DNA of 64,000 nt from Squalus acanthias (lineage: Eukaryota): contig CM059432.1 of assembly GCA_030390025.1 (NCBI GenBank), positions 10,850,001 through 10,914,000 of the forward strand. Direction: 5' to 3'. Made by a program: the position numbers and the translations under genes. The notes below the pieces were generated by a model. It was given only the letters and a program-made list of their open reading frames with translations, was not told the DNA's origin and searched no databases. Below are positions 41,494 through 62,526 of this stretch, in pieces (the first letter of the stretch is position 1; each line of letters opens with the position of its first letter).

Positions 41494-41558
41494 GATCTTT
41501 TTGGTTGAACCCAAATTTACTGTAAATCAAATTAAAACTTTAAATGAAACTTAATAAA

Positions 41559-44500
41559 TCAAATTAAAATTTGAAAGTCCGGGGTGACGATGCACTCCAG
41601 TCCCCGCGGCGCCCACCGGTCGCGGAAAAACTCAAGCGTGCCGGCGGACACCGCGTGCTCCATCTCCAGGGCCACCCGGGCGCGAACATGGCCGCGGAAG
41701 AGAGGCAGGCAATCGGGCCGAACGACCCCCTCGATCGCCCGCTGCCTGGACCAATTAATGGCTTTCTTGGCCAGGCCCAGGAGCAGTCCTACGAGGAGGT
41801 CCTCCGACCTACCCTCTCCCCTCCGCACCGGGTGACCGTAGATCAGGAGCGTGGGGCTGAAGTGCAACCAGAAATTGAGGAGCAGCCCCTTTAGATAATG
41901 AAAGAGGGGCTGCAACCTCTCACATTCAACATAAATGTGATAAACGGACTCCTCCAGGCCGCAAAAATGACAAGCAGCCTGGGAGTCCGTAAACCTACTT
42001 AAAATCCTATTGCACGGGACTGCTCCGTGCAACACCCTCCAGGCCAAGTCCCCAATAGAACAAGGGAAGACTCCCGCGTAGAGAGCCTTCCAATGGGGAC
42101 CTTCGCCTCCGCCGGACGGCAGGATGGTACGCCAAGGCGTGTCCGGACGGCAGACGAAGATGGCAAAGTGGAGAGTGTGCAGGAGCAGCCCGTACAGGAA
42201 ACGCCTCCGTGCGGATTGAAAGGGCACGGAGGGCATTTCTCCGAGAAGGCTCAAGTGGTGAGGCGGCGGCTCCCGAGGGAGGATTCGGGGCCGGGCGCCG
42301 ATAAGGAATTCCGTCCGAACGGGGGTCAGTTCGGACGGGATCGCCCCACGTGCTTGAGCCTCCTCGACACACCTAGTGGAGACGGGGCCCAGTGCCACTT
42401 TTAGCGACTCGATGGCTTTGACCGCGAGCCGGACGTTGACCCAAGACATGCGCCTCGCCAACTCCTCCGGCGCCATCCAGCCCGCTCCTCCGCCATCGAG
42501 CAGGTCCCCGACTCTGGTCACCTTACCGGGCACAGCCCTGCCCTCCGCCAGCCAGCCGAACCCGCGGTCGTGGAGGTGCGGATTCCTGAACAGCGGCTCC
42601 CGAAGGACGGCCGCCGCTCCTGACGGGGGAGAACTGCGCTCGGAGGCGACGCTGTTCCAAACCCATAGCAGTTCCTGGTAGAAGACAGGCAGCTCCCGCA
42701 GGCTGGCACGCGTGCCACCCACTCTCACAAACAGGAGCTGCGTGTCGTAATTGAGGCCGTGCAGCTGGCGGAAGAAATACGTCGCCAGCGCACGCCACCT
42801 AGGAGGATTCTCCACGTACAGGTATCTCTGCAGCGTCTGAAGACGGAAAGTCGCCGCCTGGGTGCGAAGGCACACCAGCGCCTGACCGCCCTCCCTAAGC
42901 GGGAGACTCAAAACCGCGGCAGAGACCCAGTGCTTCCTTTTGTCCCAGAAGAAGTCGACGAGCTTCTTCTGCATCTTGGCGACAAACGCAGGGGGAGGGA
43001 TCAAAGTGACCAACCGGTACCACAACATGGCGGCCACCAGCTGGTTTATGACCAGCGCTCGACCCCTGTAGGACAACACTCGGAGCAGTCCTGTCCAGCG
43101 CCCTAGGCGAGCGGTGACTTTGGCCTCCAGCTCTTGCCAGTTCGCCGGCCAGGCGTCCTCGGCCGGGCTGAGGTAGACTCCCAGGTAGAGGAGGTGCGTG
43201 GTGCTCCAGGCGAAAGGCCCGAACTCCTCCGGCAGGGAGTCCACCCGCCATGGGCCCACCAGGAGTCCAGAACATTTCTCCCAGTTGATCTTGGCGGAGG
43301 ATGCGTCCGAGTAAATCTGCTGGCATTCTCGCATCCTCCGCAAGTCGACGGGATCCGTGACCGCGAGGAGCACGTCATCGGCGTAAGCCGAGAGGACCAC
43401 CTCCACGCCCGGCCCTTGCAGAGCCAGTCCCGTCAACCTCTTCCGCAAGAGGCGCAGGAAAGGCTCCACGCAAACTGCGTATAACTGACCGGACATGGGG
43501 CATCCCTGACGCACTCCCCTCCCGAAGCGAAGGGGCGCCGTCAAAGACCCGTTAACTTTAATGAGACACTCCGCGGCGGCGTACAGAAGTCGGATCCGGG
43601 CGACGAAATGCGTCCCGAACCCGAACGCGCGCAGAGTCCCGAAAAGATACTCGTGATCCACCCTGTCGAACGCCTTCTCCTGATCCAGGGAAAGGAAGGC
43701 GACCGACAGACCAGCCCTCTGGGAATGGTGGACCAGGTCCCGGACCAGATGGATGTTATCGTGGATACTCCGGCCCGGGACCGTGTAGGACTGGTCGGGG
43801 TGGATCATGCGGGCCAGCACGGTGCCAAGGCGAGCAGACATAGCCCTGGCGAAAATTTTGTAGTCCGTGCTGAGGAGGGAGACCGGGCGCCAGTTCTTAA
43901 GTAGGCGGAGATCGCCCTTCTTGGGCAGCAGGACGATGACCGCCCTGCGCCAAGAGAGGGGCATCTCCCCGGTCGCCAGACTTTCCCCCAGGACCCGCGC
44001 GTAGTCGTCCCCCAAGACGTCCCAGAACGCCCTGTGGAACTCCACGGTCAGCCCGTCCAGCCCCGGGGACTTGCCCCTCGAGAGCTGGCGCAGGGCGCCG
44101 GTCAGCTCCGCCAGGCTTAGCGGAGCTTCTAAATTCTCGGCGCCCTCCGGGCCGACCTTCGGCAGGTCCTCCCACAAAACTCTGCGCGCATCCTCGCTGG
44201 ACGGATCCGAAGAGAACAGAGCCCCGTAATAGGCCCGGGCCTCCGCGCTGATGCCCTCCGGATCCGAGACCAGAGATCCGTCGTCGGCCAGCAGCCCCAA
44301 GAGCTGCTTACGGACCCCCCGTCTTTTTTCCAGCGAGTAGAAGAAGGGGGAGCCGCGGTCCAGGTCCCGCAGGAACTGGATCCGCGACCTCACGTACGCG
44401 CCTCGGGACCCGACCAGCTGCAGGTCCTTCAGCGCGCCCTTCTTCTCTTCGTACACCTTCCGCAGGGCCGGGTCCTCGACGACCTGACCGAGACGGGACT

Positions 44501-45459
44501 CCAGGTCGAGCACTTCTTTCTCCAATCGCCCGACCCGGGCCTCCCGCCTCTTGGTCGACCCCTTCGCGTACTCCTGACAGAAGACGCGGACGTGAGCCTT
44601 GCCCACGTCCCACCATAGCCTCAAGGAGGGGAAGCCTCCCCGCTTCCTTCTCCAGTCGGCCCAGAACCGGCGAAACGAATCCCGGAACCGCGCGTCCTCC
44701 AGCAGCAGGTTGTTAAAATGCCAGTACGCGGACCCCCCCCCGCGCGCGCAGCGGAGCGAGCTCCGCCCACACCAGGTGGTGGTCCGTGCACGGCACCGGC
44801 CGCATGGAAGCCGCCGGAACGCAGGAGACGTACGCCCGGGAAATGTAAAGGCGGTCGATTCTGGACCTTCCTCCTCCAGACCTCACGCTCGTGAAGGCGC
44901 TGGAGTCGGGATGGAGATTTCGCCAGACGTCCACCAAGTCGAAGGACCCGACCAGGTCCCGCAACTTCTCCATCGCCGCCGGGCTTCGCGGGGGACCCGA
45001 CTGGTCCCGCGCCTCGAGGGTACAATTGAAATCCCCCCCGAGGATGACGCACTCGCCCACGTCGATGGAGCCCAGAAGAGCGGACACTTCTCCGAAGAAG
45101 CGCACTTGCTGCGCACCGGTCCGGGGGGCGTACACGTTCACTAAATGGAGCGGCACGCCTCCCAGGCGAACAGTGACCTGGAGCAAGCGGCCCGGCACGT
45201 GCTCCTTGACCCTCAAGATCTCCGGCTGAAAATGCGGGGCCAGCAAGACAGCCACCCCGCAGGAATTGTTGGAGAGGTGACTCATGCTGACCCCTCCTTG
45301 CCACTCCAGGAGCCACGTGGCCTCGTCTCCCGGAACGGTGTGGGTTTCTTGCAGGAAGCACACCGCATATTTCCCGTCCCGAAGGACCGAGAAGTTATTG
45401 AATCTACGGCGCGCCTCCCTGCTGCCGTTGATGTTGAGGCTGGCTATGGTTATCTTCAT
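41559..45459 (-). pseudogene. Tx1 ORF2 copy 1, single +1 frameshift between endonuclease and RT
   Basis: C9 instead of C8 at 44733-44741 splits EN (44713-45477) from RT/CCHC (41559-44624); otherwise open. Confidence 0.8.
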
Positions 45460-45484
45460 CTCAGAAGCATAGTGCAACCTCTAC

Positions 45485-47050
45485 CTAACGGAGGGGAGGG
45501 AGGGCGGTCACTGACGACCGCCACTCCCTCAGCAGCCCAGTGTGGAACGTCTTGAGCCGACGCAGCTCGAGCCGGTCAACGTCCTTGTCCGCGCCCATGA
45601 TTTTAACGGCGGCGCGGACGGACACGACGAGCAGCGTCAGCTCCGACCACTTGTCGAGGGCCAGCCGGATCTTCTTGTGACGACCCTGGCTCATGGCCAT
45701 AAAATCCCGGAGTTCCCCTACGGGGATGAGGGGAGAGTCGGTGAAGGGCACGAGGGCGTCCATCACCTCGCTGCCGATGGACTCCAAATCGTCCTCGTTG
45801 CCCAACACCGAGTCCCCGTCCTCCTCCGGGAGGTCGTCACCGACGGCCGACCCGTCCGTCGCACGGGGTGCAGCGAACGGCTCGGCCGCACCGGCCGGCC
45901 CCGCCTCCGTCACGATCCCACCCCCAGGATCGGTGGCAGAGGAGTCCACCCTGGGCTCCTTCAGGGGCGCCGGGCCGGGAGGCGGCGGCGGCGGTTCGGG
46001 GCCCCCCCCCGCCTCAGGCGCCGGGGCGACCGGAGAAACCGGGGAGAAAATAATCCCAAATTCCTCCAGCACGTCCGGCGCCAACATCAGAGACGGAGTC
46101 AGGGGGCTTTCTGTCTCCCCGCCACCAACCTCCGACCCAGCGGGCTGGGGATTGCTACACTCCTCCACCAGGTCGAGCAGTCCCTGGGAGATATCTGGGT
46201 TATAAAAGGCGGGCTCGGCTTCAGCCTCTTTGGCCTCGCCCACCCCAGTCCCCAGGACGCCCGACCCGCCGGAGGCCGTGGTGGAGTTGGCCTCCGATTT
46301 CGACCGCGCATCCGTCGCCGTCGACGCGCGGACAGTATCAGGGGGAGGGGGGGCGGCGGCGCCAACCCTGGCCGCGCCAGGTGTCGTGGCGGCCTTGGAG
46401 GCGGGGCAGTTTTTGCGGACGTGCCCCACCTCCTTACAGGCGTAGCACCGCACGCCGTCCGAGGTCCAGAAGACGCGGTGGGCGGTCCCCCCGTGGAGCA
46501 CCGTGAACGCGCCGTCCGCGTCCTCCTCCCGCGCCAGCCGGACGAAAAGCTGGCGCCGGAAGGAGAAGACGTGCCGAAGGCTGGCTTCCCGGAAGCCGAG
46601 CGGGATGGGTGTGATCCCCGACCTCACCTCCCCCAGTTGACGTAGGTGGGGGAGGAGGAGCTCACCCGGAACAAAGGGCGGGACGTTGGAAACCACAATC
46701 CTTTGCGCGGTGGCCTCAAGGGGGTCCACCGGCAGGAAGGTCCCGCCCACGGTGAGCCCCTTCTCGATGGCCAGGGACACCGCCCGCTCCGACCCCAGGA
46801 AGAACACAGCCTTGCCGTACATTTTAGAGGCGGCGACGATGGCTGAAGGGCCGACAACCCCAGCCATGGCTTTAACGCACGCCTCTATAGTCATGTTGGG
46901 GTGAGTGTAGCTCTTGACCCCATTCTTCCTCGTAAGGAGGGTAAAAGGTGACGGGGTAACAGGAGGACTCGTGGCTGCGGCCGTGGCCGCGGCCGCCACG
47001 CTCGCATACGTCCTCGCTGCCCCCGCCACCGACGAAGATGTACTCGCCAT
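45485..47050 (-). CDS. Tx1 ORF1p copy 1 with 197-aa in-frame deletion
   Basis: 531 versus 728 aa in the ORF track; the deletion joins TTASGG to SGVLG at a CCCG microhomology (~46265). Confidence 0.85.
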   Translation of the reverse strand: MASTSSSVAGAARTYASVAAAATAAATSPPVTPSPFTLLTRKNGVKSYTHPNMTIEACVKAMAGVVGPSAIVAASKMYGKAVFFLGSERAVSLAIEKGLTVGGTFLPVDPLEATAQRIVVSNVPPFVPGELLLPHLRQLGEVRSGITPIPLGFREASLRHVFSFRRQLFVRLAREEDADGAFTVLHGGTAHRVFWTSDGVRCYACKEVGHVRKNCPASKAATTPGAARVGAAAPPPPDTVRASTATDARSKSEANSTTASGGSGVLGTGVGEAKEAEAEPAFYNPDISQGLLDLVEECSNPQPAGSEVGGGETESPLTPSLMLAPDVLEEFGIIFSPVSPVAPAPEAGGGPEPPPPPPGPAPLKEPRVDSSATDPGGGIVTEAGPAGAAEPFAAPRATDGSAVGDDLPEEDGDSVLGNEDDLESIGSEVMDALVPFTDSPLIPVGELRDFMAMSQGRHKKIRLALDKWSELTLLVVSVRAAVKIMGADKDVDRLELRRLKTFHTGLLREWRSSVTALPPLR

Positions 47051-48170
47051 AATGGAGGGTTCTTTAAGGGCTACACTCACCCCAAGTCACAGGCCTGAAG
47101 GTGTTAATGGCCTCGGTTTTTTTTTTTGTTTTAGTTTTCCCCTGAGCAGAGGGAGCTCTTAAATTGAAGGCACACCTCTCCCTTTAGTTGATTGAGTTGG
47201 GAGAGGGGCCTTCTCCCCTCTGCTCAATGGGTACTTAATTAAAAAGATAATGAGGTGCCTCTTAGAGAGAGAGAGGCAGAGAGAGACAAGAGACAAAGAG
47301 AGAGAGAGAGAGAGAGAGGGGGGGGTGGGAAGGAGGGAAGCCGCAAGGGCAGGGTCGCCACTCAGGATGGTGGGTGGGTGGGTGTTGGCAGGGGGGTGCA
47401 CTCTCCGATGTAATAAAAGTCTTTGGTGGTGGTCTTCTGGTGGGGGGAGAAGATGTCTTCACCTGGGACAGCTGGAGATGCCCAGGCTCAGTCCTGCACC
47501 AGGTCTTAACGATGCCCAATAATATTAAATTAATTGGGGACTTCACCTAGGCAGCTCCAGCTGTCCCAGGTCAGGCAATGGGAAAGGGGTGTTTAATATG
47601 GTGTGTGCGGCCTAGCTTTTACAAAAGCCACACACACACACACACCCCTTGGATGTTCCGGCCCTCTTCTTATCTTCTTTCCTCCCCCCACCTACAAAAC
47701 AAAGTCTCTGGGAGAGTGCACCAGAATCACACCCACCTGTAGCTGTTGTTCTTTCCTTCCTTCCTCCTTCCAAACAGATGATGGATGTTGTGTTGTTTTC
47801 TCCCCTCTCTCCCTCTCCTAAAATGGAGGCCAATTGAGGAGGCAGTGATGGGAAAGGCCTCTCCTCTGTTGTTAATGTCCTTGGCCTTCCTTTCTTTTCT
47901 TTCTCCTCTCCTGTCCTCTCTCTCCAGGCACCTCAGTTGTGGTTGTTGGTTGTGGGTTGGTGGTGGTCTGCTATCTGGTCTCCTTCTCCTTCTCCTCTTC
48001 CTGCTCACAGAGACCACCACTCTGCTGCTGCTGCTGCTCCTTCGTCAGCAGCTCCGAAAGCTTGTGATTTCAAATAAAGCTGTTGGACTATAACCTGGTG
48101 TTGCTCTTTTTGGTTTGTCAAATCAAAATTTACTGTAAATCAATTAAAACTTGAAATGAAACTTAACAAA

Positions 48171-51100
48171 TCAAATCAAAATTTGGAAGTCCGGGGTGAC
48201 GATGCACTCCAGTCCCCGCGGCGCCCACCGGTCGCGGAAAAACTCAAGCGTGCCGGCGGACACCGCGTGCTCCATCTCCAGGGCCACCCGGGCGCGAACA
48301 TGGCCGCGGAAGAGAGGCAGGCAATCGGGCCGAACGACCCCCTCGACCGCCCGCTGCCTGGACCAATTAATGGCTTTCTTGGCCAGGCCCAGGAGCAGTC
48401 CTACGAGGAGGTCCTCCGACCTACCCGCTCCCCTCCGCACCGGGTGACCGTAGATCAGGAGCGTGGGGCTGAAGTGCAACCAGAAATTGAGGAGCAGCCC
48501 CTTCAAATAATGAAAGAGGGGCTGCAACCTCTCACACTCAATATAAATGTGATAGACGGACTCCTCCAGGCCGCAGAAATGACAAGCAGCCTGGGAGTCC
48601 GTAAACCTACTTAAAATCCTATTGCACGGGACTGCTCCGTGCAACACCCTCCAGGCCAAGTCCCCAATAGAACAAGGGAAGACTCCCGCGTAGAGAGCCT
48701 TCCAATGGGGACCTTCGCCTCCGCCGGACGGCAGGATGGTACGCCAAGGCGTGTCCGGACGGCAGACGAAGATGGCAAAGTGGAGAGTGTGCAGGAGCAG
48801 CCCATACAGGAAACGCCTCCGTGCGGATTGAAAGGGCACGGAGGGCATTTCTCCGAGAAGGCTCAAGTGGTGAGGCGGCGGCTCCGAGGGAGGATTCGGG
48901 GCCGGGCGCCGATAAGGAATTCCGTCCGAACGGGGGTCAGTTCGGACGGGATCGCCCCACGTGCTTGAGCCTCCTCGACACACCTAGTGGAGACGGGGCC
49001 CAGTGCCACTTTTAGCGACTCGATGGCTTTGACCGCGAGCCGGACGTTGACCCAAGACATGCGCCTCGCCAACTCCTCCGGCGCCATCCAGCCCGCTCCT
49101 CCGCCATCGAGCAGGTCCCCGACTCTGGTCACCTTACCGGGCACAGCCCTGCCCTCCGCCAGCCAGCCGAACCCGCGGTCGTGGAGGTGCGGATTCCTGA
49201 ACAGCGGCTCCCGAAGGACGGCCGCCGCTCCTGACGGGGGAGAACTGCGCTCGGAGGCGACGCTGTTCCAAACCCATAGCAGTTCCTGGTAGAAGACAGG
49301 CAGCTCCCGCAGGCTGGCACGCGTGCCACCCACTCTCACAAACAGGAGCTGCGTGTCGTAATTGAGGCCGTGCAGCTGGCGGAAGAAATACGTCGCCAGC
49401 GCACGCCACCTAGGAGGATTCTCCACGTACAGGTATCTCTGCAGCGTCTGAAGACGGAAAGTCGCCGCCTGGGTGCGAAGGCACACCAGCGCCTGACCGC
49501 CCTCCCTAAGCGGGAGACTCAAAACCGCGGCAGAGACCCAGTGCTTCCTTTTGTCCCAGAAGAAGTCGACGAGCTTCTTCTGCATCTTGGCGACAAACGC
49601 AGGGGGAGGGATCAAAGTGACCAACCGGTACCACAACATGGCGGCCACCAGCTGGTTTATGACCAGCGCTCGACCCCTGTAGGACAACACTCGGAGCAGT
49701 CCTGTCCAGCGCCCTAGGCGAGCGGTGACTTTGGCCTCCAGCTCTTGCCAGTTCGCCGGCCAGGCGTCCTCGGCCGGGCTGAGGTAGACTCCCAGGTAGA
49801 GGAGGTGCGTGGTGCTCCAGGCGAAAGGCCCGAACTCCTCCGGCAGGGAGTCCACCCGCCATGGGCCCACCAGGAGTCCAGAACATTTCTCCCAGTTGAT
49901 CTTGGCGGAGGATGCGTCCGAGTAAATCTGCTGGCATTCTCGCATCCTCCGCAAGTCGACGGGATCCGTGACCGCGAGGAGCACGTCATCGGCGTAAGCC
50001 GAGAGGACCACCTCCACGCCCGGCCCTTGCAGAGCCAGTCCCGTCAACCTCTTCCGCAAGAGGCGCAGGAAAGGCTCCACGCAAACGGCGTATAACTGAC
50101 CGGACATGGGGCATCCCTGACGCACCCCCCTCCCGAAGCGAAGGGGCGCCGTCAAAGACCCGTTAACTTTAATGAGACACTCCGCGGCGGCGTACAGAAG
50201 TCGGATCCGGGCGACGAAATGCGTCCCGAACCCGAACGCGCGCAGAGTCCCGAAAAGATACTCGTGATCCACCCTGTCGAACGCCTTCTCCTGATCCAGG
50301 GAAAGGAAGGCGACCGACAGACCAGCCCTCTGGGAATGGTGGACCAGGTCCCGGACCAGATGGATGTTATCGTGGATACTCCGGCCCGGGACCGTGTAGG
50401 ACTGGTCGGGGTGGATCATGCGGGCCAGCACGGTGCCAAGGCGAGCAGACATAGCCCTGGCGAAAATTTTGTAGTCCGTGCTGAGGAGGGAGACCGGGCG
50501 CCAGTTCTTAAGTAGGCGGAGATCGCCCTTCTTGGGCAGCAGGACGATGACCGCCCTGCGCCAAGAGAGGGGCATCTCCCCGGTCGCCAGACTTTCCCCC
50601 AGGACGTCCCAGAACGCCCTGTGGAACTCCACGGTCAGCCCGTCCAGCCCCGGGGACTTGCCCCTCGAGAGCTGGCGCAGGGCGCCGGTCAGCTCCGCCA
50701 GGCTTAGCGGAGCTTCTAAATTCTCGGCGCCCTCCGGGCCGACCTTCGGCAGGTCCTCCCACAAAACTCTGCGCGCATCCTCGCTGGACGGATCCGAAGA
50801 GAACAGAGCCCCGTAATAGGCCCGGGCCTCCGCGCTGATGCCCTCCGGATCCGAGACCAGAGATCCGTCGTCGGCCAGCAGCCCCAAGAGCTGCTTACGG
50901 ACCCCCCGTCTTTTTTCCAGCGAGTAGAAGAAGGGGGAGCCGCGGTCCAGGTCCCGCAGGAACTGGATCCGCGACCTCACGTACGCGCCTCGGGACCCGA
51001 CCAGCTGCAGGTCCTTCAGCGCGCCCTTCTTCTCTTCGTACACCTTCCGCAGGGCCGGGTCCTCGACGACCTGACCGAGACGGGACTCCAGGTCGAGCAC

Positions 51101-52046
51101 TTCTTTCTCCAATCGCCCGACCCGGGCCTCCCGCCTCTTGGTCGACCCCTTCGCGTACTCCTGACAGAAGACGCGGACGTGAGCCTTGCCCACGTCCCAC
51201 CATAGCCTCAAGGAGGGGAAGCCTCCCCGCTTCCTTCTCCAGTCGGCCCAGAACCGGCGAAACGAATCCCGGAACCGCGCGTCCTCCAGCAGCAGGTTGT
51301 TAAAATGCCAGTACGCGGACCCCCCCCCGCGCGCGCAGCGGAGCGAGCTCCGCCCACACCAGGTGGTGGTCCGTGCACGGCACCGGCCGCATGGAAGCCG
51401 CCGGAACGCAGGAGACGTACGCCCGGGAAATGTAAAGGCGGTCGATTCTGGACCTTCCTCCTCCAGACCTCACGCTCGTGAAGGCGCTGGAGTCGGGATG
51501 GAGATTTCGCCAGACGTCCACCAAGTCGAAGGACCCGACCAGGTCCCGCAACTTCTCCATCGCCGCCGGGCTTCGCGGGGGACCCGACCGGTCCCGCGCC
51601 TCGAGGGTACAATTGAAATCCCCCCCGAGGATGACGCACTCGCCCACGTCGATGGAGCCCAGAAGAGCGGACACTTCTCCGAAGAAGCGCACTTGCTGCG
51701 CACCGGTCCGGGGGGCGTACACGTTCACTAAATGGAGCGGCACGCCTCCCAGGCGAACAGTGACCTGGAGCAAGCGGCCCGGCACGTGCTCCTTGACCCT
51801 CAAGATCTCCGGCTGAAAATGCGGGGCCAGCAAGACAGCCACCCCGCAGGAATTGTTGGAGAGGTGACTCATGCTGACCCCTCCTTGCCACTCCAGGAGC
51901 CACGTGGCCTCGTCTCCCGGAACGGTGTGGGTTTCTTGCAGGAAGCACACCGCATATTTCCCGTCCCGAAGGACCGAGAAGTTATTGAATCTACGGCGCG
52001 CCTCCCTGCTGCCGTTGATGTTGAGGCTGGCTATGGTTATCTTCAT
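48171..52046 (-). pseudogene. Tx1 ORF2 copy 2, frameshifted
   Basis: +1 in a C-run (C9 versus C8) at ~51320, 24-bp in-frame deletion at ~50600 (DVLGDDYARVLGES to DVLGES), 1-bp deletion at ~48885; split into three ORFs in the track. Confidence 0.85.
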
Positions 52047-52071
52047 CTCAGAAGCATAGTGCAACCTCTAC

Positions 52072-54228
52072 CTAACGGAGGGGAGGGAGGGCGGTCACTG
52101 ACGACCGCCACTCCCTCAGCAGCCCAGTGTGGAACGTCTTGAGCCGACGCAGCTCGAGCCGGCCAACGTCCTTGTCAGCGCCCATGATTTTAACGGCGGC
52201 GCGGACGGACACGACGAGCAGCGTCAGCTCCGACCACTTGTCGAGGGCCAGCCGGATCTTCTTGTGACGACCCTGGCTCACGGCCATAAAATCCCGGAGT
52301 TCCCCTACGGGGATGAGGGGAGAGTCGGTGAAGGGCACGAGGGCGTCCATCGCCTCGCTGCCGATGGACTCCAAATCGTCCTCGATGCCCCCCACCGAGT
52401 CCCCGTCCTCCTCCGGGAGGTCGTCACCGGCGGCCAACCCGTCCGTCACACAGGGTGCAGCGAACGGCTCGGCCGCACCGGCCGGCCCCGCCTCCGTCAC
52501 GATCCCACCCCCAGGATCGGTGGCAGAGGAGTCCACCCTGGGCTCCTTCAGGGGCGCCGGGCCGGGAGGCGGCGGCGGCGGTTCGGGGCCCCCCCCCGCC
52601 TCAGGCGCCGGGGCGACCGGAGAAACCGGGGAGAAAATAATCCCAAATTCCTCCAGCACGTCCGGCGCCAACAACAGAGACGGAGTCAGGGGGCTTTCCG
52701 TCTCCCCGCCACCAACCTCCGACCCAGCGGGCTGGGGATTGCTACACTCCTCCACCAGGTCGAGCAGTCCCTGGGAGATATCTGGGTTATAAAAGGCGGG
52801 CTCGGCTTCAGCCTCTTTGGCCTCGCCCGCCCCAGTCCCCAGGACGCCCGACCCGGCGAGGAGCAACGGTTCAGGTTCTACATTTTCTTCCGCGGGTTGT
52901 TCCGCGCCCCCCCCCACGGGCAGGGTCTCTTCCCCATCCCCGGGAGGCACAGGTCGGACAGACTCGGCTGTCTCACCCTCCCGAGGGACAGACGACCCCT
53001 GCCGATCGCGCGCGACGATGACGGTGGTGGGGTGGGGCGCAGCACCCGCGGCGGGCGACTGCCCCCCTTTTGCGGAGGGACCTTCCTCCTCGCAGTCCTC
53101 CTGCTGGGGGCGGAGCTTTCTTTTTAACGTATTGGGGCCCGGAGAGGGGGAGGCCTCCATGTCTGCTGGGGCCTCCCTCTCTGCCCCCTTCCGACGACTG
53201 GGTTTCTTGGGCCCCTCGGGCCCGAGCCCGGCCGCAGGTCTTGATTCAGCTGCCTCAGCAGTTGCGGTCACGGTCACGGGCCCGGGCACGAGGACCCCCC
53301 CAGTCTCATGCGTCCCGACCAACTCCGCGATATACTCGGGCGTGAGTTCGGTCAATTCCGATGTTTCCTCCGCGAGGGGATCCGCCCTTAGGTGTTTAGT
53401 TTTCCTACGCGCCTTCCTTCCCCCCGGACGCTCTCCCTCCTCCCCGCCGGAGGCCGTGGTGGTGTTGGCCTCCGATTTCGACCGCGCATCCGTCGCCGTC
53501 GACGCGCGGACAGTATCAGGGGGAGGGGGGGCGGCGGCGCCAACCCTGGCCGCGCCAGGTGTCGTGGCGGCCTTGGAGGCGGGGCAGTTTTTGCGGACGT
53601 GCCCCACCTCCTTACAGGCGTAGCACCGCACGCCGTCCGAGGTCCAGAAGACGCGGTGGGCGGTCCCCCCGTGGAGCACCGTGAACGCGCCATCCGCGTC
53701 CTCCTCCCGCGCCAGCCGGACGAAAAGCTGCCGCCGGAAGGAGAAGACGTGCCGAAGGCTGGCTTCCCGGAAGCCGAGCGGGATGGGTGTGATCCCCGAC
53801 CTCACCTCCCCCAGTTGACGTAGGTGGGGGAGGAGGAGCTCACCCGGAACAAAGGGCGGGACGTTGGAAACCACAATCCTTTGCGCGGTGGCCTCAAGGG
53901 GGTCCACCGGCAGGAAGGTCCCGCCCACGGTGAGCCCCTTCTCGATGGCCAGGGACACCGCCCGCTCCGACCCCAGGAAGAACACAGCCTTGCCGTACAT
54001 TTTAGAGGCGGCGACGATGGCTGAAGGGCCGACAACCCCAGCCATGGCTTTAACGCACGCCTCTATAGTCATGTTGGGGTGAGTGTAGCTCTTGACCCCA
54101 TTCTTCCTCGTAAGGAGGGTAAAAGGTGACGGGGTAACAGGAGGACTCGTGGCTGCGGCCGTGGCCGCGGCCGCCACGCTCGCATACGTCCTCGCTGCCC
54201 CCGCCACCGACGAAGATGTACTCGCCAT
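52072..54228 (-). CDS. Tx1 ORF1p copy 2 (intact, 718 aa)
   Basis: Same protein as copy 3 apart from a cluster of substitutions near the C-terminus (CVTDGLAAG..GGIEDD). Confidence 0.9.
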   Translation of the reverse strand: MASTSSSVAGAARTYASVAAAATAAATSPPVTPSPFTLLTRKNGVKSYTHPNMTIEACVKAMAGVVGPSAIVAASKMYGKAVFFLGSERAVSLAIEKGLTVGGTFLPVDPLEATAQRIVVSNVPPFVPGELLLPHLRQLGEVRSGITPIPLGFREASLRHVFSFRRQLFVRLAREEDADGAFTVLHGGTAHRVFWTSDGVRCYACKEVGHVRKNCPASKAATTPGAARVGAAAPPPPDTVRASTATDARSKSEANTTTASGGEEGERPGGRKARRKTKHLRADPLAEETSELTELTPEYIAELVGTHETGGVLVPGPVTVTATAEAAESRPAAGLGPEGPKKPSRRKGAEREAPADMEASPSPGPNTLKRKLRPQQEDCEEEGPSAKGGQSPAAGAAPHPTTVIVARDRQGSSVPREGETAESVRPVPPGDGEETLPVGGGAEQPAEENVEPEPLLLAGSGVLGTGAGEAKEAEAEPAFYNPDISQGLLDLVEECSNPQPAGSEVGGGETESPLTPSLLLAPDVLEEFGIIFSPVSPVAPAPEAGGGPEPPPPPPGPAPLKEPRVDSSATDPGGGIVTEAGPAGAAEPFAAPCVTDGLAAGDDLPEEDGDSVGGIEDDLESIGSEAMDALVPFTDSPLIPVGELRDFMAVSQGRHKKIRLALDKWSELTLLVVSVRAAVKIMGADKDVGRLELRRLKTFHTGLLREWRSSVTALPPLR

Positions 54229-55349
54229 AATGGAGGGTTCTTTAAGGGCTACACTCACCCCAAGTCACAGGCCTGAAGGTGTTAATGGCCTCGGTTTTTT
54301 TTTTGTTTTAGTTTTCCCCTGAGCAGAGGGAGCTCTTAAATTGAAGGCACACCTCTCCCTTTAGTTGATTGAGTTGGGAGAGGGGCCTTCTCCCCTCTGC
54401 TCAATGGGTACTTAATTAAAAAGATAATGAGGTGCCTCTTAGAGAGAGAGAGGCAGAGAGAGACAAGAGACAAAGAGAGAGAGAGAGAGAGGGGGGGGTG
54501 GGAAGGAGGGAAGCCGCAAGGGCAGGGTCGCCACTCAGGATGGTGGGTGGGTGGGTGTTGGCAGGGGGGTGCACTCTCCGATGTAATAAAAGTCTTTGGT
54601 GGTGGTCTTCTGGTGGGGGAAGAAGATGTCTTCACCTGGGATAGCTGGAGATGCCCAGGCTCAGTCCTGCACCAGGTCTTAACGATGCCCAATTGGATTA
54701 AATTAATTGGGGAACTTCACCTAGGCAGCTCCAGCTGTCCCAGGTCAGGCAATGGGAAAGGGGTGTTTAATATGGTGTGTGCGGCCTAGCTTTTACAGAA
54801 GCCACACACACACACACCCCTTAGATGTTCCGGCCCTCTTCTTTTCTTCTTTCCTCCCCCCACCTACAAAACAAAGTCTCTGGGAGAGTGCACCAGAATC
54901 ACACCCACCTGTAGCTGTTGTTCTTTCCTTCCTTCCTCCTTCCAAACAGATGATGGTTGTTGGTGTTTTCTCCCCTCTCTCCCTCTCCTAAAATGGAGGC
55001 CAATTGAGGAGGCAGTGTGGAAAGGCCTCTCCTCTGGTGTTAATGTCCTTGGCCTTCCTTTCTTTTCTTTCTCCTCTCCTGTCCTCTCTCTCCAGGCACC
55101 TCAGTTGTGGTTGTTGGTTGTGGGTTGGTGGTGGTCTGCTATCTGGTCTCCTTCTCCTTCTCCTCTTCCTGCTCACAGAGACCACCACTCTGCTGCTGCT
55201 GCTGCTGCTGCTCCTTCGTCAGCAGCTCCGAAAGCTTGTGATTTCAAATAAAGCTGTTGGACTATAACCTGGTGTTTTTTTTTTTTGTTTTTTTTTGGAC
55301 AACACAAATTTACTGTAAATCAATTAAAATTTTAAATGAAACTTAATAA

Positions 55350-58300
55350 TCAAATCAAAATTTCGAAGTCCGGGGTGACGATGCACTCCAGCCCCCGCGG
55401 CGCCCACCGGTCGCGGAAAAACTCAAGCGTGCCGGCGGACACCGCGTGCTCCATCTCCAGGGCCACCCGGGCGCGAACATGGCCGCGGAAGAGAGGCAGG
55501 CAATCGGGCCGAACGACCCCCTCGACCGCCCGCTGCCTGGACCAATTAATGGCTTTCTTGGCCAGGCCCAGGAGCAGTCCTACGAGGAGGTCCTCCGACC
55601 TACCCGCTCCCCTCCGCACCGGGTGACCGTAGATCAGGAGCGTGGGGCTGAAGTGCAACCAGAAATTGAGGAGCAGCCCCTTCAAATAATGAAAGAGGGG
55701 CTGCAACCTCTCACATTCAACATAAATGTGATAAACGGACTCCTCCAGGCCGCAAAAATGGCAAGCAGCCTGGGAGTCCGTAAACCTACTTAAAATCCTA
55801 TTGCACGGGACTGCTCCGTGCAACACCCTCCAGGCCAAGTCCCCAATAGAACAAGGGAAGACTCCCGCGTAGAGAGCCTTCCAATGGGGACCTTCGCCTC
55901 CGCCGGACGGCAGGATGGTACGCCAAGGCGTGTCCGGACGGCAGACGAAGATGGCAAAGTGGAGAGTGTGCAGGAGCAGCCCGTACAGGAAACGCCTCCG
56001 TGCGGATTGAAAGGGCACGGAGGGCATTTCTCCGAGAAGGCTCAAGTGGTGAGGCGGCGGCTCCCGAGGGAGGATTCGGGGCCGGGCGCCGATAAGGAAT
56101 TCCGTCCGAACGGGGGTCAGTTCGGACGGGATCGCCCCACGTGCTTGAGCCTCCTCGACACACCTAGTGGAGACGGGGCCCAGTGCCACTTTTAGCGACT
56201 CGATGGCTTTGACCGCGAGCCGGACGTTGACCCAGGACATGCGCCTCGCCAACTCCTCCGGCGCCATCCAGCCCGCTCCTCCGCCATCGAGCAGGTCCCC
56301 GACTCTGGTCACCTTACCGGGCACAGCCCTGCCCTCCGCCAGCCAGCCGAACCCGCGGTCGTGGAGGTGCGGATTCCTGAACAGCGGCTCCCGAAGGACG
56401 GCCGCCGCTCCTGACGGGGGAGAACTGCGCTCGGAGGCGACGCTGTTCCAAACCCATAGCAGTTCCTGGTAGAAGACAGGCAGCTCCCGCAGGCTGGCAC
56501 GCGTGCCACCCACTCTCACAAACAGGAGCTGCGTGTCGTAATTGAGGCCGTGCAGCTGGCGGAAGAAATACGTCGCCAGCGCACGCCACCTAGGAGGATT
56601 CTCCACGTACAGGTATCTCTGCAGCGTCTGAAGACGGAAAGTCGCCGCCTGGGTGCGAAGGCACACCAGCGCCTGACCGCCCTCCCTAAGCGGGAGACTC
56701 AAAACCGCGGCAGAGACCCAGTGCTTCCTTTTGTCCCAGAAGAAGTCGACGAGCTTCTTCTGCATCTTGGCGACAAACGCAGGGGGAGGGATCAAAGTGA
56801 CCAACCGGTACCACAACATGGCGGCCACCAGCTGGTTTATGACCAGCGCTCGACCCCTGTAGGACAACACTCGGAGCAGTCCTGTCCAGCGTCCTAGGCG
56901 AGCGGTGACTTTGGCCTCCAGCTCTTGCCAGTTCGCCGGCCAGGCGTCCTCGGCCGGGCTGAGGTAGACTCCCAGGTAGAGGAGGTGCGTGGTGCTCCAG
57001 GCGAAAGGCCCGAACTCCTCCGGCAGGGAGTCCACCCGCCATGGGCCCACCAGGAGTCCAGAACATTTCTCCCAGTTGATCTTGGCGGAGGATGCGTCCG
57101 AGTAAATCTGCTGGCATTCTCGCATCCTCCGCAAGTCGACGGGATCCGTGACCGCGAGGAGCACGTCATCGGCGTAAGCCGAGAGGACCACCTCCACGCC
57201 CGGCCCTTGCAGAGCCAGTCCCGTCAACCTCTTCCGCAAGAGGCGCAGGAAAGGCTCCACGCAAACGGCGTATAACTGACCGGACATGGGGCATCCCTGA
57301 CGCACCCCCCTCCCGAAGCGAAGGGGCGCCGTCAAAGACCCGTTAACTTTAATCAGACACTCCGCGGCGGCGTACAGAAGTCGGATCCGGGCGACGAAAT
57401 GCGTCCCGAACCCGAATGCGCGCAGAGTCCCGAAAAGATACTCGTGATCCACCCTGTCGAACGCCTTCTCCTGATCCAGGGAAAGGAAGGCGACCGACAG
57501 ACCAGCCCTCTGGGAATGGTGGACCAGGTCCCGGACCAGATGGATGTTATCGTGGATGCTCCGGCCCGGGACCGTGTAGGACTGGTCGGGGTGGATCATG
57601 CGGGCCAGCACGGTGCCAAGGCGAGCAGACATAGCCCTGGCGAAAATTTTGTAGTCCGTGCTGAGGAGGGAGACCGGGCGCCAGTTCTTAAGTAGGCGGA
57701 GATCGCCCTTCTTGGGCAGCAGGACGATGACCGCCCTGCGCCAAGAGAGGGGCATCTCCCCGGTCGCCAGACTTTCCCCCAGGACCCGCGCGTAGTCGTC
57801 CCCCAAGACGTCCCAGAACGCCCTGTGGAACTCCACGGTCAGCCCGTCCAGCCCCGGGGACTTGCCCCTCGAGAGCTGGCGCAGGGCGCCGGTCAGCTCC
57901 GCCAGGCTTAGCGGAGCTTCTAAATTCTCGGCGCCCTCCGGGCCGACCTTCGGCAGGTCCTCCCACAAAACTCTGCGCGCATCCTCGCTGGACGGATCTG
58001 AAGAGAACAGAGCCCCGTAATAGGCCCGGGCCTCCGCGCTGATGCCCTCCGGATCCGAGACCAGAGATCCGTCGTCGGCCAGCAGCCCCAAGAGCTGCTT
58101 ACGGACCCCCCGTCTTTTTTCCAGCGAGTAGAAGAAGGGGGAGCCGCGGTCCAGGTCCCGCAGGAACTGGATCCGCGACCTCACGTACGCGCCTCGGGAC
58201 CCGACCAGCTGCAGGTCCTTCAGCGCGCCCTTCTTCTCTTCGTACACCTTCCGCAGGGCCGGGTCCTCGACGACTTGACCGAGACGGGACTCCAGGTCGA

Positions 58301-59249
58301 GCACTTCTTTCTCCAATCGCCCGACCCGGGCCTCCCGCCTCTTGGTCGACCCCTTCGCGTACTCCTGACAGAAGACGCGGACGTGAGCCTTGCCCACGTC
58401 CCACCATAGCCTCAAGGAGGGGAAGCCTCCCCGCTTCCTTCTCCAGTCGGCCCAGAACCGGCGAAACGAATCCCGGAACCGCGTGTCCTCCAGCAGCAGG
58501 TTGTTAAAATGCCAGTACGCGGACCCCCCCCGCGCGCGCAGCGGAGCGAGCTCCGCCCACACCAGGTGGTGGTCCGTGCACGGCACCGGCCGCATGGAAG
58601 CCGCCGGAACGCAGGAGACGTACGCCCGGGAAATGTAAAGGCGGTCGATTCTGGACCTTCCTCCTCCAGACCTCACGCTCGTGAAGGCGCTGGAGTCGGG
58701 ATGGAGATTTCGCCAGACGTCCACCAAGTCGAAGGACCCGACCAGGTCCCGCAACTTCTCCATCGCCGCCGGGCTTCGCGGGGGACCCGACCGGTCCCGC
58801 GCCTCGAGGGTACAATTGAAATCCCCCCCGAGGATGACGCACTCGCCCACGTCGATGGAGCCCAGAAGAGCGGACACTTCTCCGAAGAAGCGCACTTGCT
58901 GCGCACCGGTCCGGGGGGCGTACACGTTCACTAAATGGAGCGGCACGCCTCCCAGGCGAACAGTGACCTGGAGCAAGCGGCCCGGCACGTGCTCCTTGAC
59001 CCTCAAGATCTCCGGCTGAAAATGCGGGGCCAGCAAGACAGCCACCCCGCAGGAATTGTTGGAGAGGTGACTCATGCTGACCCCTCCTTGCCACTCCAGG
59101 AGCCACGTGGCCTCGTCTCCCGGAACGGTGTGGGTTTCTTGCAGGAAGCACACCGCATATTTCCCGTCCCGAAGGACCGAGAAGTTATTGAATCTACGGC
59201 GCGCCTCCCTGCTGCCGTTGATGTTGAGGCTGGCTATGGTTATCTTCAT
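55350..59249 (-). CDS. Tx1 ORF2p copy 3: APE endonuclease, reverse transcriptase, C-terminal CCHC finger (1299 aa from the first ATG)
   Basis: APE motifs SLNING, LQET, NVYAP, GGDFN, SRIDR, TDH; RT motifs KSPGLDG, WRPVSLL, DQEKAFD, RQGCP, YADD; zinc motif CHFC..HIYVEC; uninterrupted. The ORF track starts 18 nt earlier at a TTG. Confidence 0.95.
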   Translation of the reverse strand: MKITIASLNINGSREARRRFNNFSVLRDGKYAVCFLQETHTVPGDEATWLLEWQGGVSMSHLSNNSCGVAVLLAPHFQPEILRVKEHVPGRLLQVTVRLGGVPLHLVNVYAPRTGAQQVRFFGEVSALLGSIDVGECVILGGDFNCTLEARDRSGPPRSPAAMEKLRDLVGSFDLVDVWRNLHPDSSAFTSVRSGGGRSRIDRLYISRAYVSCVPAASMRPVPCTDHHLVWAELAPLRARGGSAYWHFNNLLLEDTRFRDSFRRFWADWRRKRGGFPSLRLWWDVGKAHVRVFCQEYAKGSTKRREARVGRLEKEVLDLESRLGQVVEDPALRKVYEEKKGALKDLQLVGSRGAYVRSRIQFLRDLDRGSPFFYSLEKRRGVRKQLLGLLADDGSLVSDPEGISAEARAYYGALFSSDPSSEDARRVLWEDLPKVGPEGAENLEAPLSLAELTGALRQLSRGKSPGLDGLTVEFHRAFWDVLGDDYARVLGESLATGEMPLSWRRAVIVLLPKKGDLRLLKNWRPVSLLSTDYKIFARAMSARLGTVLARMIHPDQSYTVPGRSIHDNIHLVRDLVHHSQRAGLSVAFLSLDQEKAFDRVDHEYLFGTLRAFGFGTHFVARIRLLYAAAECLIKVNGSLTAPLRFGRGVRQGCPMSGQLYAVCVEPFLRLLRKRLTGLALQGPGVEVVLSAYADDVLLAVTDPVDLRRMRECQQIYSDASSAKINWEKCSGLLVGPWRVDSLPEEFGPFAWSTTHLLYLGVYLSPAEDAWPANWQELEAKVTARLGRWTGLLRVLSYRGRALVINQLVAAMLWYRLVTLIPPPAFVAKMQKKLVDFFWDKRKHWVSAAVLSLPLREGGQALVCLRTQAATFRLQTLQRYLYVENPPRWRALATYFFRQLHGLNYDTQLLFVRVGGTRASLRELPVFYQELLWVWNSVASERSSPPSGAAAVLREPLFRNPHLHDRGFGWLAEGRAVPGKVTRVGDLLDGGGAGWMAPEELARRMSWVNVRLAVKAIESLKVALGPVSTRCVEEAQARGAIPSELTPVRTEFLIGARPRILPREPPPHHLSLLGEMPSVPFQSARRRFLYGLLLHTLHFAIFVCRPDTPWRTILPSGGGEGPHWKALYAGVFPCSIGDLAWRVLHGAVPCNRILSRFTDSQAACHFCGLEESVYHIYVECERLQPLFHYLKGLLLNFWLHFSPTLLIYGHPVRRGAGRSEDLLVGLLLGLAKKAINWSRQRAVEGVVRPDCLPLFRGHVRARVALEMEHAVSAGTLEFFRDRWAPRGLECIVTPDFEILI

Positions 59250-59274
59250 CTCAGAAGCATAGTGCAACCTCTAC

Positions 59275-61431
59275 CTAACGGAGGGGAGGGAGGGCGGTCA
59301 CTGACGACCGCCACTCCCTCAGCAGCCCAGTGTGGAACGTCTTGAGCCGACGCAGCTCGAGCCGGTCAACGTCCTTGTCCGCGCCCATGATTTTAACGGC
59401 GGCGCGGACGGACACGACGAGCAGCGTCAGCTCCGACCACTTGTCGAGGGCCAGCCGGATCTTCTTGTGACGACCCTGGCTCATGGCCATAAAATCCCGG
59501 AGTTCCCCTACGGGGATGAGGGGAGAGTCGGTGAAGGGCACGAGGGCGTCCATCACCTCGCTGCCGATGGACTCCAAATCGTCCTCGTTGCCCAACACCG
59601 AGTCCCCGTCCTCCTCCGGGAGGTCGTCACCGACGGCCGACCCGTCCGTCGCACGGGGTGCAGCGAACGGCTCGGCCGCACCGGCCGGCCCCGCCTCCGT
59701 CACGATCCCACCCCCAGGATCGGTGGCAGAGGAGTCCACCCTGGGCTCCTTCAGGGGCGCCGGGCCGGGAGGCGGCGGCGGCGGTTCGGGGCCCCCCCCC
59801 GCCTCAGGCGCCGGGGCGACCGGAGAAACCGGGGAGAAAATAATCCCAAATTCCTCCAGTACGTCCGGCGCCAACATCAGAGACGGAGTCAGGGGGCTTT
59901 CTGTCTCCCCGCCACCAACCTCCGACCCAGCGGGCTGGGGATTGCTACACTCCTCCACCAGGTCGAGCAGTCCCTGGGAGATATCTGGGTTATAAAAGGC
60001 GGGCTCGGCTTCAGCCTCTTTGGCCTCGCCCGCCCCAGTCCCCAGGACGCCCGACCCGGCGAGGAGCAACGGTTCAGGTTCTACATTTTCTTCCGCGGGT
60101 TGTTCCGCGCCCCCCCCCACGGGCAGGGTCTCTTCCCCATCCCCGGGAGGCACAGGTCGGACAGACTCGGCTGTCTCACCCTCCCGAGGGACAGACGACC
60201 CCTGCCGATCGCGCGCGACGATGACGGTGGTGGGGTGGGGCGCAGCACCCGCGGCGGGCGACTGCCCCCCTTTTGCGGAGGGACCTTCCTCCTCGCAGTC
60301 CTCCTGCTGGGGGCGGAGCTTTCTTTTTAACGTATTGGGGCCCGGAGAGGGGGAGGCCTCCATGTCTGCTGGGGCCTCCCTCTCTGCCCCCTTCCGACGA
60401 CTGGGTTTCTTGGGCCCCTCGGGCCCGAGCCCGGCCGCAGGTCTTGATTCAGCTGCCTCAGCAGTTGCGGTCACGGTCACGGGCCCGGGCACGAGGACCC
60501 CCCCAGTCTCATGCGTCCCGACCAACTCCGCGATATACTCGGGCGTGAGTTCGGTCAATTCCGATGTTTCCTCCGCGAGGGGATCCGCCCTTAGGTGTTT
60601 AGTTTTCCTACGCGCCTTCCTTCCCCCCGGACGCTCTCCCTCCTCCCCGCCGGAGGCCGTGGTGGTGTTGGCCTCCGATTTCGACCGCGCATCCGTCGCC
60701 GTCGACGCGCGGACAGTATCAGGGGGAGGGGGGGCGGCGGCGCCAACCCTGGCCGCGCCAGGTGTCGTGGCGGCCTTGGAGGCGGGGCAGTTTTTGCGGA
60801 CGTGCCCCACCTCCTTACAGGCGTAGCACCGCACGCCGTCCGAGGTCCAGAAGACGCGGTGGGCGGTCCCCCCGTGGAGCACCGTGAACGCGCCATCCGC
60901 GTCCTCCTCCCACGCCAGCCGGACGAAAAGCTGCCGCCGGAAGGAGAAGACGTGCCGAAGGCTGGCTTCCCGGAAGCCGAGCGGGATGGGTGTGATCCCC
61001 GACCTCACCTCCCCCAGTTGACGTAGGTGGGGGAGGAGGAGCTCACCCGGAACAAAGGGCGGGACGTTGGAAACCACAATCCTTTGCGCGGTGGCCTCAA
61101 GGGGGTCCACCGGCAGGAAGGTCCCGCCCACGGTGAGCCCCTTCTCGATGGCCAGGGACACCGCCCGCTCCGACCCCAGGAAGAACACAGCCTTGCCGTA
61201 CATTTTAGAGGCGGCGACGATGGCTGAAGGGCCGACAACCCCAGCCATGGCTTTAACGCACGCCTCTATAGTCATGTTGGGGTGAGTGTAGCTCTTGACC
61301 CCATTCTTCCTCGTAAGGAGGGTAAAAGGTGACGGGGTAACAGGAGGACTCGTGGCTGCGGCCGTGGCCGCGGCCGCCACGCTCGCATACGTCCTCGCTG
61401 CCCCCGCCACCGACGAAGATGTACTCGCCAT
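59275..61431 (-). CDS. Tx1 ORF1p copy 3 (718 aa from ATG): nucleic-acid-binding N-terminal region, CCHC zinc knuckle, long acidic/proline-rich region
   Basis: ASKMYGKAVFFL and VSNVPPF motifs typical of Tx1 ORF1; CYACKEVGHVRKNC knuckle; ends 25 nt before the ORF2 ATG. Confidence 0.92.
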   Translation of the reverse strand: MASTSSSVAGAARTYASVAAAATAAATSPPVTPSPFTLLTRKNGVKSYTHPNMTIEACVKAMAGVVGPSAIVAASKMYGKAVFFLGSERAVSLAIEKGLTVGGTFLPVDPLEATAQRIVVSNVPPFVPGELLLPHLRQLGEVRSGITPIPLGFREASLRHVFSFRRQLFVRLAWEEDADGAFTVLHGGTAHRVFWTSDGVRCYACKEVGHVRKNCPASKAATTPGAARVGAAAPPPPDTVRASTATDARSKSEANTTTASGGEEGERPGGRKARRKTKHLRADPLAEETSELTELTPEYIAELVGTHETGGVLVPGPVTVTATAEAAESRPAAGLGPEGPKKPSRRKGAEREAPADMEASPSPGPNTLKRKLRPQQEDCEEEGPSAKGGQSPAAGAAPHPTTVIVARDRQGSSVPREGETAESVRPVPPGDGEETLPVGGGAEQPAEENVEPEPLLLAGSGVLGTGAGEAKEAEAEPAFYNPDISQGLLDLVEECSNPQPAGSEVGGGETESPLTPSLMLAPDVLEEFGIIFSPVSPVAPAPEAGGGPEPPPPPPGPAPLKEPRVDSSATDPGGGIVTEAGPAGAAEPFAAPRATDGSAVGDDLPEEDGDSVLGNEDDLESIGSEVMDALVPFTDSPLIPVGELRDFMAMSQGRHKKIRLALDKWSELTLLVVSVRAAVKIMGADKDVDRLELRRLKTFHTGLLREWRSSVTALPPLR

Positions 61432-62473
61432 AATGGAGGGTTCTTTAAGGGCTACACTCACCCCAAGTCACAGGCCTGAAGGTGTTAATGGCCTCGGTTT
61501 TTTTTTTGTTTTAGTTTTCCCCTGAGCAGAGGGAGCTCTTAAATTGAAGGCACACCTCTCCCTTTAGTTGATTGAGTTGGGAGAGGGGCCTTCTCCCCTC
61601 TGCTCAATGGGTACTTAATTAAAAAGATAATGAGGTGCCTCTTAGAGAGAGAGAGGCAGAGAGAGACAAGAGACAAAGAGAGAGAGAGAGAGAGGGGGGG
61701 GTGGGAAGGAGGGAAGCCGCAAGGGCAGGGTCGCCACTCAGGATGGTGGGTGGGTGGGTGTTGGCAGGGGGGTGCACTCTCCGATGTAATAAAAGTCTTT
61801 GGTGGTGGTCTTCTGGTGGGGGGAGAAGATGTCTTCACCTGGGATAGCTGGAGATGCCCAGGCTCAGTCCTGCACCAGGTCTTAACGATGCCCAATTGGA
61901 TTAAATTAATTGGGGAACTTCACCTAGGCAGCTCCAGCTGTCCCAGGTCAGGCAATGGGAAAGGGGTGTTTAATATGGTGTGTGCGGCCTAGCTTTTACA
62001 GAAGCCACACACACACACACCCCTTAGATGTTCCGGCCCTCTTCTTTTCTTCTTTCCTCCCCCCACCTACAAAACAAAGTCTCTGGGAGAGTGCACCAGA
62101 ATCACACCCACCTGTAGCTGTTGTTCTTTCCTTCCTTCCTCCTTCCAAACAGATGATGGTTGTTGGTGTTTTCTCCCCTCTCTCCCTCTCCTAAAATGGA
62201 GGCCAATTGAGGAGGCAGTGTGGAAAGGCCTCTCCTCTGGTGTTAATGTCCTTGGCCTTCCTTTCTTTTCTTTCTCCTCTCCTGTCCTCTCTCTCCAGGC
62301 ACCTCAGTTGTGGTTGTTGGTTGTGGGTTGGTGGTGGTCTGCTATCTGGTCTCCTTCTCCTTCTCCTCTTCCTGCTCACAGAGACCACCACTCTGCTGCT
62401 GCTGCTGCTCCTTCGTCAGCAGCTCCGAAAGCTTGTGATTTCAAATAAAGCTGTTGGACTATAACCTGGTGTT

Positions 62474-62526
62474 GTGCGACTTCTCACATTTGTCCACCCC
62501 AGTCCAACACAGGCATCTCCACATCA
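62474..62526 (+). mobile_element. Right end of the Penelope-like element split by the Tx1 array
   Basis: GTGCGACTTCTCACATTTGTCCACCCCAGTCCAACACAGGCATCTCCACATCA continues the target as in the uninterrupted copy at 17267-17371. Confidence 0.85.

Follow-up and report, generated by a model that had tools for sequence, protein, structure and literature searches.

An inverted fragment of the target at the 5′ end of a Tx1-clade LINE in Squalus acanthias is probably an inherited junction scar

At the 5′ end of a LINE in the shark Squalus acanthias, a 16-nt stretch matches the opposite strand of the repeat into which the element is inserted, and this raises the question of whether the match guides integration or is handed down from copy to copy as a passenger. 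We analysed a window of 64,000 nucleotides (assembly GCA_030390025.1, contig CM059432.1, positions 10,850,001 to 10,914,000), in which the 16-mer occurs exactly in the target at 41426-41441 on the plus strand and, inverted, at 48033-48048, 55207-55222 and 62404-62419 on the minus strand. An earlier note on this sequence had reported these places, all of which proved exact, and an additional minus-strand copy at 41011-41026 was missing from its list. With up to two mismatches allowed, 5 matches were found in the window, compared with 0.03 expected from shuffled sequences. On the plus strand, each element ends with (GCT)n, followed by the reverse complement of the 16-mer, CA, and a 53-nt stretch identical to 41442-41494. 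Within the target, the same 53-nt stretch starts right after the 16-mer with no base between, as had been noted, and whether the repeat is counted as 52 or 53 nt hinges on its last G. The earlier note had read this long repeat as a duplication made at insertion, and had proposed that the 5′ junction could be set through pairing of the RNA 5′ end, or of the cDNA end, with the target beside the second-strand nick; as an alternative it named a one-off or recurrent inversion by template switching, primed by CTG/CAG microhomology.

The target 16-mer (41426..41441, plus strand) is followed by the left-hand 53-nt stretch (41442..41494, plus strand), which is the local repeat tail up to the first-strand nick after GGTGTTG. 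Three element copies then lie on the minus strand. Copy 1 (41495..48032) is about 0.6 kb shorter than the others, with an internal gap near 46265-46271, and its 5′ extension (48033..48103, minus strand) consists of the 16-mer (48033-48048), CA (48049-48050) and the target-like stretch (48051-48103), the outer 16 nt of which coincide with the real duplication defined below. Copy 2 (48104..55206) has its extension at 55207..55277 on the minus strand, with the 16-mer at 55207-55222 and a 53-nt stretch at 55225-55277 whose last base is T. Copy 3 (55278..62403) contains ORF2 (55350-59249), ORF1 (59275-61431) and (GCT)5 (62395-62409). Next to it are the flagged inverted 16-mer with CA (62404..62421, minus strand; 16-mer 62404-62419, CA 62420-62421) and its own 53-nt stretch (62422..62474, minus strand), of which at least the inner 37 nt are element-borne. 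At position 62450, a mix of bases was observed within the target repeat population, in contigs of sequence runs of presumed type. The rest of the local tail (62475..62526, plus strand) runs to the 3′ end of the repeat, and contigs aligned there have loose ends at 62526. An unoccupied copy of the target lies inverted at 40958..41026 (minus strand), forming an inverted pair with 41336-41494.

The three minus-strand units are 7.2 kb in size and have two ORFs apiece. ORF1 contains a CCHC knuckle, and ORF2 contains an N-terminal AP-type endonuclease followed by a reverse transcriptase, according to the Pfam domains Exo_endo_phos (1.7e-11), RVT_1 (8.5e-38) and zf-RVT. Residues 1-800 of ORF2 were 55% identical to the Xenopus Tx1 149-kDa protein ("Transposon TX1 uncharacterized 149 kDa protein") with 100% coverage and an E value of 3.2e-280. 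These domains, together with the identity to the Xenopus protein, indicate a close relative of Tx1, and the element is classified by domains and pairwise identity as a Tx1-clade LINE. Exact 3′ junctions at a single site were found 703 times genome-wide, and all examined copies were positioned after GGTGTTG of the tail of a Penelope-like element (PLE). The best explanation is that the element inserts antisense into the PLE tail, with the PLE-sense strand nicked after GGTGTTG and the other strand nicked 14-16 bp off. Target-specific Tx1-clade LINEs described in Kojima 2015 (PMC4494074) include Tx1L in Tx1D, Keno in U2 genes and Tx1-Mar in Mariner-N4_AMi, and tandem insertions sandwiching a 16-bp duplication are known among them. 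The shark element resembles these in its ORF2 with APE and RT, in its use of a single site in another repeat family, and in its tandem arrays split by a duplicated target of about 16 bp. Unlike those described there, its target is a PLE tail with a minimal hammerhead-like motif, and most of its copies bear an extra leader that is derived from the target and inherited. A limited literature search, which is not proof of absence, found no description of a Tx1 element targeting PLE tails. A PLE tail would be an addition to the target list of Tx1-clade elements.

The target repeat is a probable PLE, judged by the architecture of its inverted pairs and a hammerhead-like motif. By eye, 41426-41457 has the features listed for the PLE minimal hammerhead in PMC4209133, and the 16-mer itself would supply the CUGANGA core (here CUGACGA) with a bulged A, the GGAGC helix II arm and the AGC loop. 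The Rfam hammerhead models, which may not cover minimal forms, gave no match at the target, neither at the gathering score nor at E values up to 10. The earlier note had called the 16-mer a hammerhead core and stem II arm; the likeness in motif stands by eye, and we regard it as a minimal hammerhead-like motif with putative self-cleavage. The repeat is abundant, as the 16-mer with the start of the 53-mer had 18,752 exact matches in the genome, and a form with one extra A in the loop had 3,048.

PLE copies of this family often lie head to head, with 13 close inverted pairs among the first 100 places listed. All 8 of the examined pairs free of Tx1 had one full arm, reaching the 3′ end of the repeat, and one short arm, and in all 8 the short arm ended 6-17 nt past GGTGTTG. 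Inverted 5′-truncated PLE copies have been described (Craig et al. 2021, PMC8557442), and the head-to-head pairs, the short arm and the flanking repeats of the target family are like those in that paper. Unlike the inverted PLE copies described there, the Tx1 element has only 16 nt inverted, fused to its own 5′ UTR at (GCT)n. In the Tx1-free pairs (L101-L108, contig C1), the short arm ended preferentially at 12 nt past GGTGTTG (5 of 8), and the centre was 9-16 nt long, with a GTGA..TCAC-like sequence in 3 of 8. Elsewhere in the window, a 5′-truncated PLE tail at 17267-17370 starts within a few bases of the first base of the 53-mer; it interrupts another repeat and is flanked by a short repeat. 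The reverse transcriptase of the PLE may often halt at the helix II hairpin. Short right flanks were considered as a mark of the RNA 5′ end of the Tx1 element, and this was rejected because the short arms of Tx1-free PLEs also end 6-17 nt past the nick; 14 of 37 right flanks resembled such arms when judged by eye.

The 5′ junction seen in the window is widespread. A 141-nt junction query returned 1,238 candidates, and all 40 that were scored, on many contigs, were 90-100% identical, 39 of them at 95% or more. An exact 29-mer spanning the junction was found 439 times genome-wide, compared with 0 for the control, and one of the 439 was not a Tx1. The junction was identical in 30 of 30 fetched loci, which were taken from best-scoring or first-listed places and not at random. 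Exact-pattern counts are lower bounds throughout. Some loci are segmental duplicates of one another (L010-12, and L018-21 with L041, L050 and L072), and comparisons with the local target were therefore made on 23 independent solo or leftmost copies, with L041 and L050 counted as one. Among the first 100 copies listed, the 16-mer was canonical (TTCG) in 56, had two bases changed (TCAG; TG for GA) in 42, and was intermediate (TCCG) in 2. Thus about 42 of the first 100 copies listed have only 14/16 identity to the target 16-mer, and their junction is unchanged.

If pairing between the two 16-mers set the junction, changes in one should be mirrored in the other. The local target 16-mer was variant or absent in 13 of the 23 independent loci, and the element mirrored it in 0 of these 13. 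In 3 of 23 loci, an element with the TG variant lay within a canonical target, in 6 of 23 the element and local 16-mers were identical, and 1 of 23 could not be judged. Insertions were also found at targets without the 16-mer (L046 and L085), and in L136 only 16 nt of the PLE lay left of the nick and the site was still used. A targeting role for the 16-mer did not emerge from these comparisons, and we infer that it is a passenger.

We then compared the left 53-mer, which belongs to the local target, with its right-hand counterpart beside the element. Over the 23 loci, the left copy differed from the window 53-mer at 40 variant positions, and the right copy shared 7 of the 40. Three of the shared variants came from a single locus (L055/L056), and the other four were all at position 29, which varies among leaders too; unshared variant positions were all at 37 or lower. 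In targets of a divergent PLE subfamily, subfamily-2, with 3-5 differences (L065, L079 and L089), the right-hand copy was still of the standard type. Of 6 loci that were candidates for truncated copies, 3 were not truncated within 1.5 kb, and one (L112) was uninformative, since it ends after 1.3 kb with no PLE sequence next. The remaining loci gave three independent truncation junctions with repeats of 14-15 nt: L110 has two 5′-truncated copies with one breakpoint and a 15-nt repeat, and L113 has two with different breakpoints and a 14-nt repeat. One of the other 5′ forms of the element, form B below, repeats 16 nt. Because the variants are largely unshared and truncated copies have only a short repeat, the 53-nt repeat was not made at insertion, contrary to what the earlier note had supposed for its 52-bp duplication. 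The real target-site duplication comprises the 14-16 nt beside the nick (41479..41494 in the window, plus strand), which places the second nick about 37 bp away from the 16-mer that it had been thought to adjoin. By these comparisons, the element carries with it the 16-mer, CA and no less than the inner 37 nt of the right-hand 53-mer. Contrary to the first proposal, its start is not at TG and the 16-mer, and the inherited unit extends at least 37 nt further out. The loss of the long duplication in 5′-truncated copies, which had been suggested as a check on pairing, was indeed found, and is not discriminating because an inherited extension predicts the same loss. At L055/L056, 3 of 4 local variants are also present on the right, so that the stretch can sometimes be templated or repaired from the local target. 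A 50:50 heteroduplex of the leader and a 53-nt overhang was rejected, since nearly every informative locus has a right copy of the donor type.

Other 5′ ends are present at the same site. The last part of the 5′ UTR, as far as (GCT)n, had 814 matches in the genome, and from the first 100 places listed we sorted 20 that lacked the exact junction of the window form (form A) or of form B, taking one per apparent array. They comprised 5 of form A with a mismatch, 1 of form A′, 5 of form C, 2 of form D and 7 of form B or B′. In form A′, 12 nt of the inverted segment are missing, form C has six other bases followed by 46 nt of PLE, and forms B and B′ have a different end of 29-35 nt followed by only the 16-nt repeat. 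Exact counts were 438 for form A, 108 for C, 41 for B and 17 for B′, and many sister-form copies belong to arrays of about 7.16 kb. The genome held 0 matches to a "bare" form in which the 14-nt repeat directly follows (GCT)n. A single junction was common to the 30 fetched loci, and forms A′, B, B′, C and D have other 5′ ends. Many full-length copies at the same site lack the motif, an outcome that the earlier note itself had named as contrary to its proposal. In L136/L118 and L137/L122, the local target either lacks the 46-nt leader of form C or differs from it, which indicates that this leader too is element-borne. Forms B′ and D contain GGAGCAGC(AGC)n without CTGACGAA, and the inner half of the 16-mer is thus probably native 5′ UTR; GGAGCAGC would then probably match the ribozyme motif's helix II arm and loop by chance. 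Each of the three 16-mer variants is identical to a chimera that joins PLE 16-mer and B′/D sequence, with breakpoints next to one another, and the variants may reflect more than one capture, or recombination. The two bases that distinguish the TG variant are those of B′ and D at these positions, and the rare intermediate fits a breakpoint one base further. A second intermediate copy (L135) has the standard leader. The series A, A′, B, B′, C and D, differing only in the captured 5′ end, could serve to study the transcript start of a site-specific LINE of the APE type and the way in which its 5′ end is joined.

These results lead us to regard the 16-mer, with good though not complete confidence, as an inherited scar and not a guide, that is, a scrap of the target captured in inverted orientation by an ancestral copy and passed to its descendants. 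On the PLE-sense strand, the form A extension reads (GCT)n, CC, TTCGTCAG and CA, followed by at least 37 nt of PLE. It runs seamlessly into the real duplication of 14-16 bp and so mimics a 53-bp duplication beside an inverted 16-mer. The origin may have been an ancestral insertion: once the cDNA end had paired with GGAGCAGC in the PLE-sense strand, 8 nt would have been added, after which synthesis would have reversed at CAG/CTG microhomology and followed the other strand to the nick. This strand-switch route would reproduce the junction base for base if the target had the extra A. The alternative in the earlier note, template-switch inversion at this microhomology, fits the data in an inherited form that arose once or a few times. 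Transcripts would then start at or outside the extension, in which case the junction of any source copy is re-copied and its descendants carry the scar. The same inverted junction was observed once without Tx1, in a PLE insertion with 74/74 identical arms and its own flanking repeat, which indicates that a reverse transcriptase can make such a turn on PLE sequence. No hammerhead or HDV-like match was found at the element's 5′ end (61900-62700, E up to 10), and the RNA fold of 62340-62474 on the minus strand was no better than shuffles (z = -0.25).

Such a scar has precedents in R2. Junction aberrations of R2 propagate if target sequence is where the template RNA begins (Eickbush et al. 2013, PMC3774820), and that paper describes 22 bp copied from downstream 28S sequence, present 5′ in every earwig copy, and a 24-bp duplication in the sow bug. 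As in the shark, a site-specific LINE has a uniform odd junction that includes a copy of the target from downstream of the insertion point; in R2 this junction persists inside the template RNA and is re-copied in each cycle (PMC3774820), and we propose the same for the shark element. The two differ in that R2, as described there, has a restriction-like endonuclease and a 28S rDNA site, and is co-transcribed and cut out by an HDV-like ribozyme, whereas the shark element is an APE-type relative of Tx1 with no ribozyme found at its 5′ end. Its scar is also partly inverted, unlike those of R2 in that text (PMC3774820), and several alternative scars coexist as sister forms.

Among L1 elements, 5′ inversions, template switching and microhomology-mediated 5′ joining, in which short homology lets the cDNA end pair with a target strand, are familiar, and they are dead-end events specific to one copy. 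The shark junction resembles these in its inverted or extra sequence, and its product is heritable instead. This kind of scar is known from R2, and what seems new is the setting, with an APE-type Tx1 relative, a PLE-tail target, partial inversion and several coexisting scars. The case reveals no new targeting principle. It does illustrate that an apparent textbook long target-site duplication with an adjoining "guide" can be part of the mobile unit.

Other explanations of the junction were weighed against this one. Pairing of the RNA or cDNA end with the target 16-mer beside the second nick would account for the perfect 16/16 inverted identity directly abutting the repeat, and it too predicts that truncated copies lack the long repeat. 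We nevertheless consider it very unlikely, as the 13 informative loci showed no covariation, about 42 of the first 100 copies listed keep the same junction with 14/16 identity, targets without the 16-mer were used (L046, L085 and L136), the local target is not the template of the right-hand repeat, the nicks are really staggered by 14-16 bp, and sister forms without the 16-mer are at the same site. A 16-mer that acts as a guide was rejected on these grounds, and so was any requirement for it in site choice or junction position, since forms B, B′, C, D and A′ share the site without it. A new inversion at every insertion, formed each time through one and the same strand switch on the local target, is similarly improbable, and strongly so. 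The three 16-mer variants do resemble different switch points between native 5′ UTR and PLE, the right copy of L055/L056 is local-like, and a Tx1-free PLE insertion made the same junction; however, local variants of the 16-mer and 53-mer were left uncopied in the great majority of loci, and the intermediate copy L135 has a standard leader. Misassembly, or tandem or segmental duplication of a single insertion, might be suspected from the tandem arrangement of the three window copies and from the mutual duplicates among fetched loci (L010-12 and L018-21), but it has next to no probability, and was refuted by the spread of independent flanks, because the junction occurs on dozens of contigs with differing flanks, 3′ tails and local targets.

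A further possibility accepts the inherited extension and gives it a function: the PLE-derived leader, with or without the 16-mer, would have been kept since it helps, for instance by letting its cDNA copy anneal to the target strand that is displaced. The form with the longest leader, A, is the commonest (439, compared with 108 for C with its 46 nt, and 41 and 17 for B and B′ with none), 5′ junctions are uniform within each form, and a precise and efficient 5′ join has been proposed for R2 RNAs that keep 28S sequence, according to PMC3774820. The homology is on the wrong side, however, as the leader copies the target downstream and not upstream of the insertion point in element sense. Abundance may reflect lineage age or activity, forms with only the 16-nt repeat insert precisely too, and the RNA fold is no better than that of shuffles. 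We therefore hold a helpful leader to be rather unlikely, and equally the fuller version in which Tx1 RNAs start in target-derived sequence, the captured leader serves as a homology arm, and longer leaders (A > C > B) have out-competed the rest. Were it true, the leader cDNA would pair with the opened target so that base pairing sets both ends of the insertion, and repeated capture of target sequence at the 5′ end would be an adaptive route by which a LINE of the APE type sharpens its own integration. The inherited scar remains the reading that we prefer.

Several rearranged copies were observed among the examined loci. L048 (C8:78181514-78188951) is a palindrome with its centre near element position 43384 on the window scale, and L045 (C8:78122989-78130432) has a 5′ fragment adjoining an inverted copy. 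L033 (C3443:637416-644856) is missing 1.8 kb at its 3′ end and abuts an inverted PLE, and at C4:152277722-152277843 two Tx1 3′ junctions face each other on opposite strands, 94 bp apart. In the window, a fragment like the 3′ end of a related Tx1-like element (40548-40900) adjoins the inverted PLE arm and has a differing 3′ flank. Beyond the PLE tail, 62527-63040 consists of tandem repeats whose unit is roughly 40 nt long, and one such unit is also found at 40906-40950, beside the inverted arm. Further on, at 63380-63600, a tRNA-like SINE head was recognized by eye.
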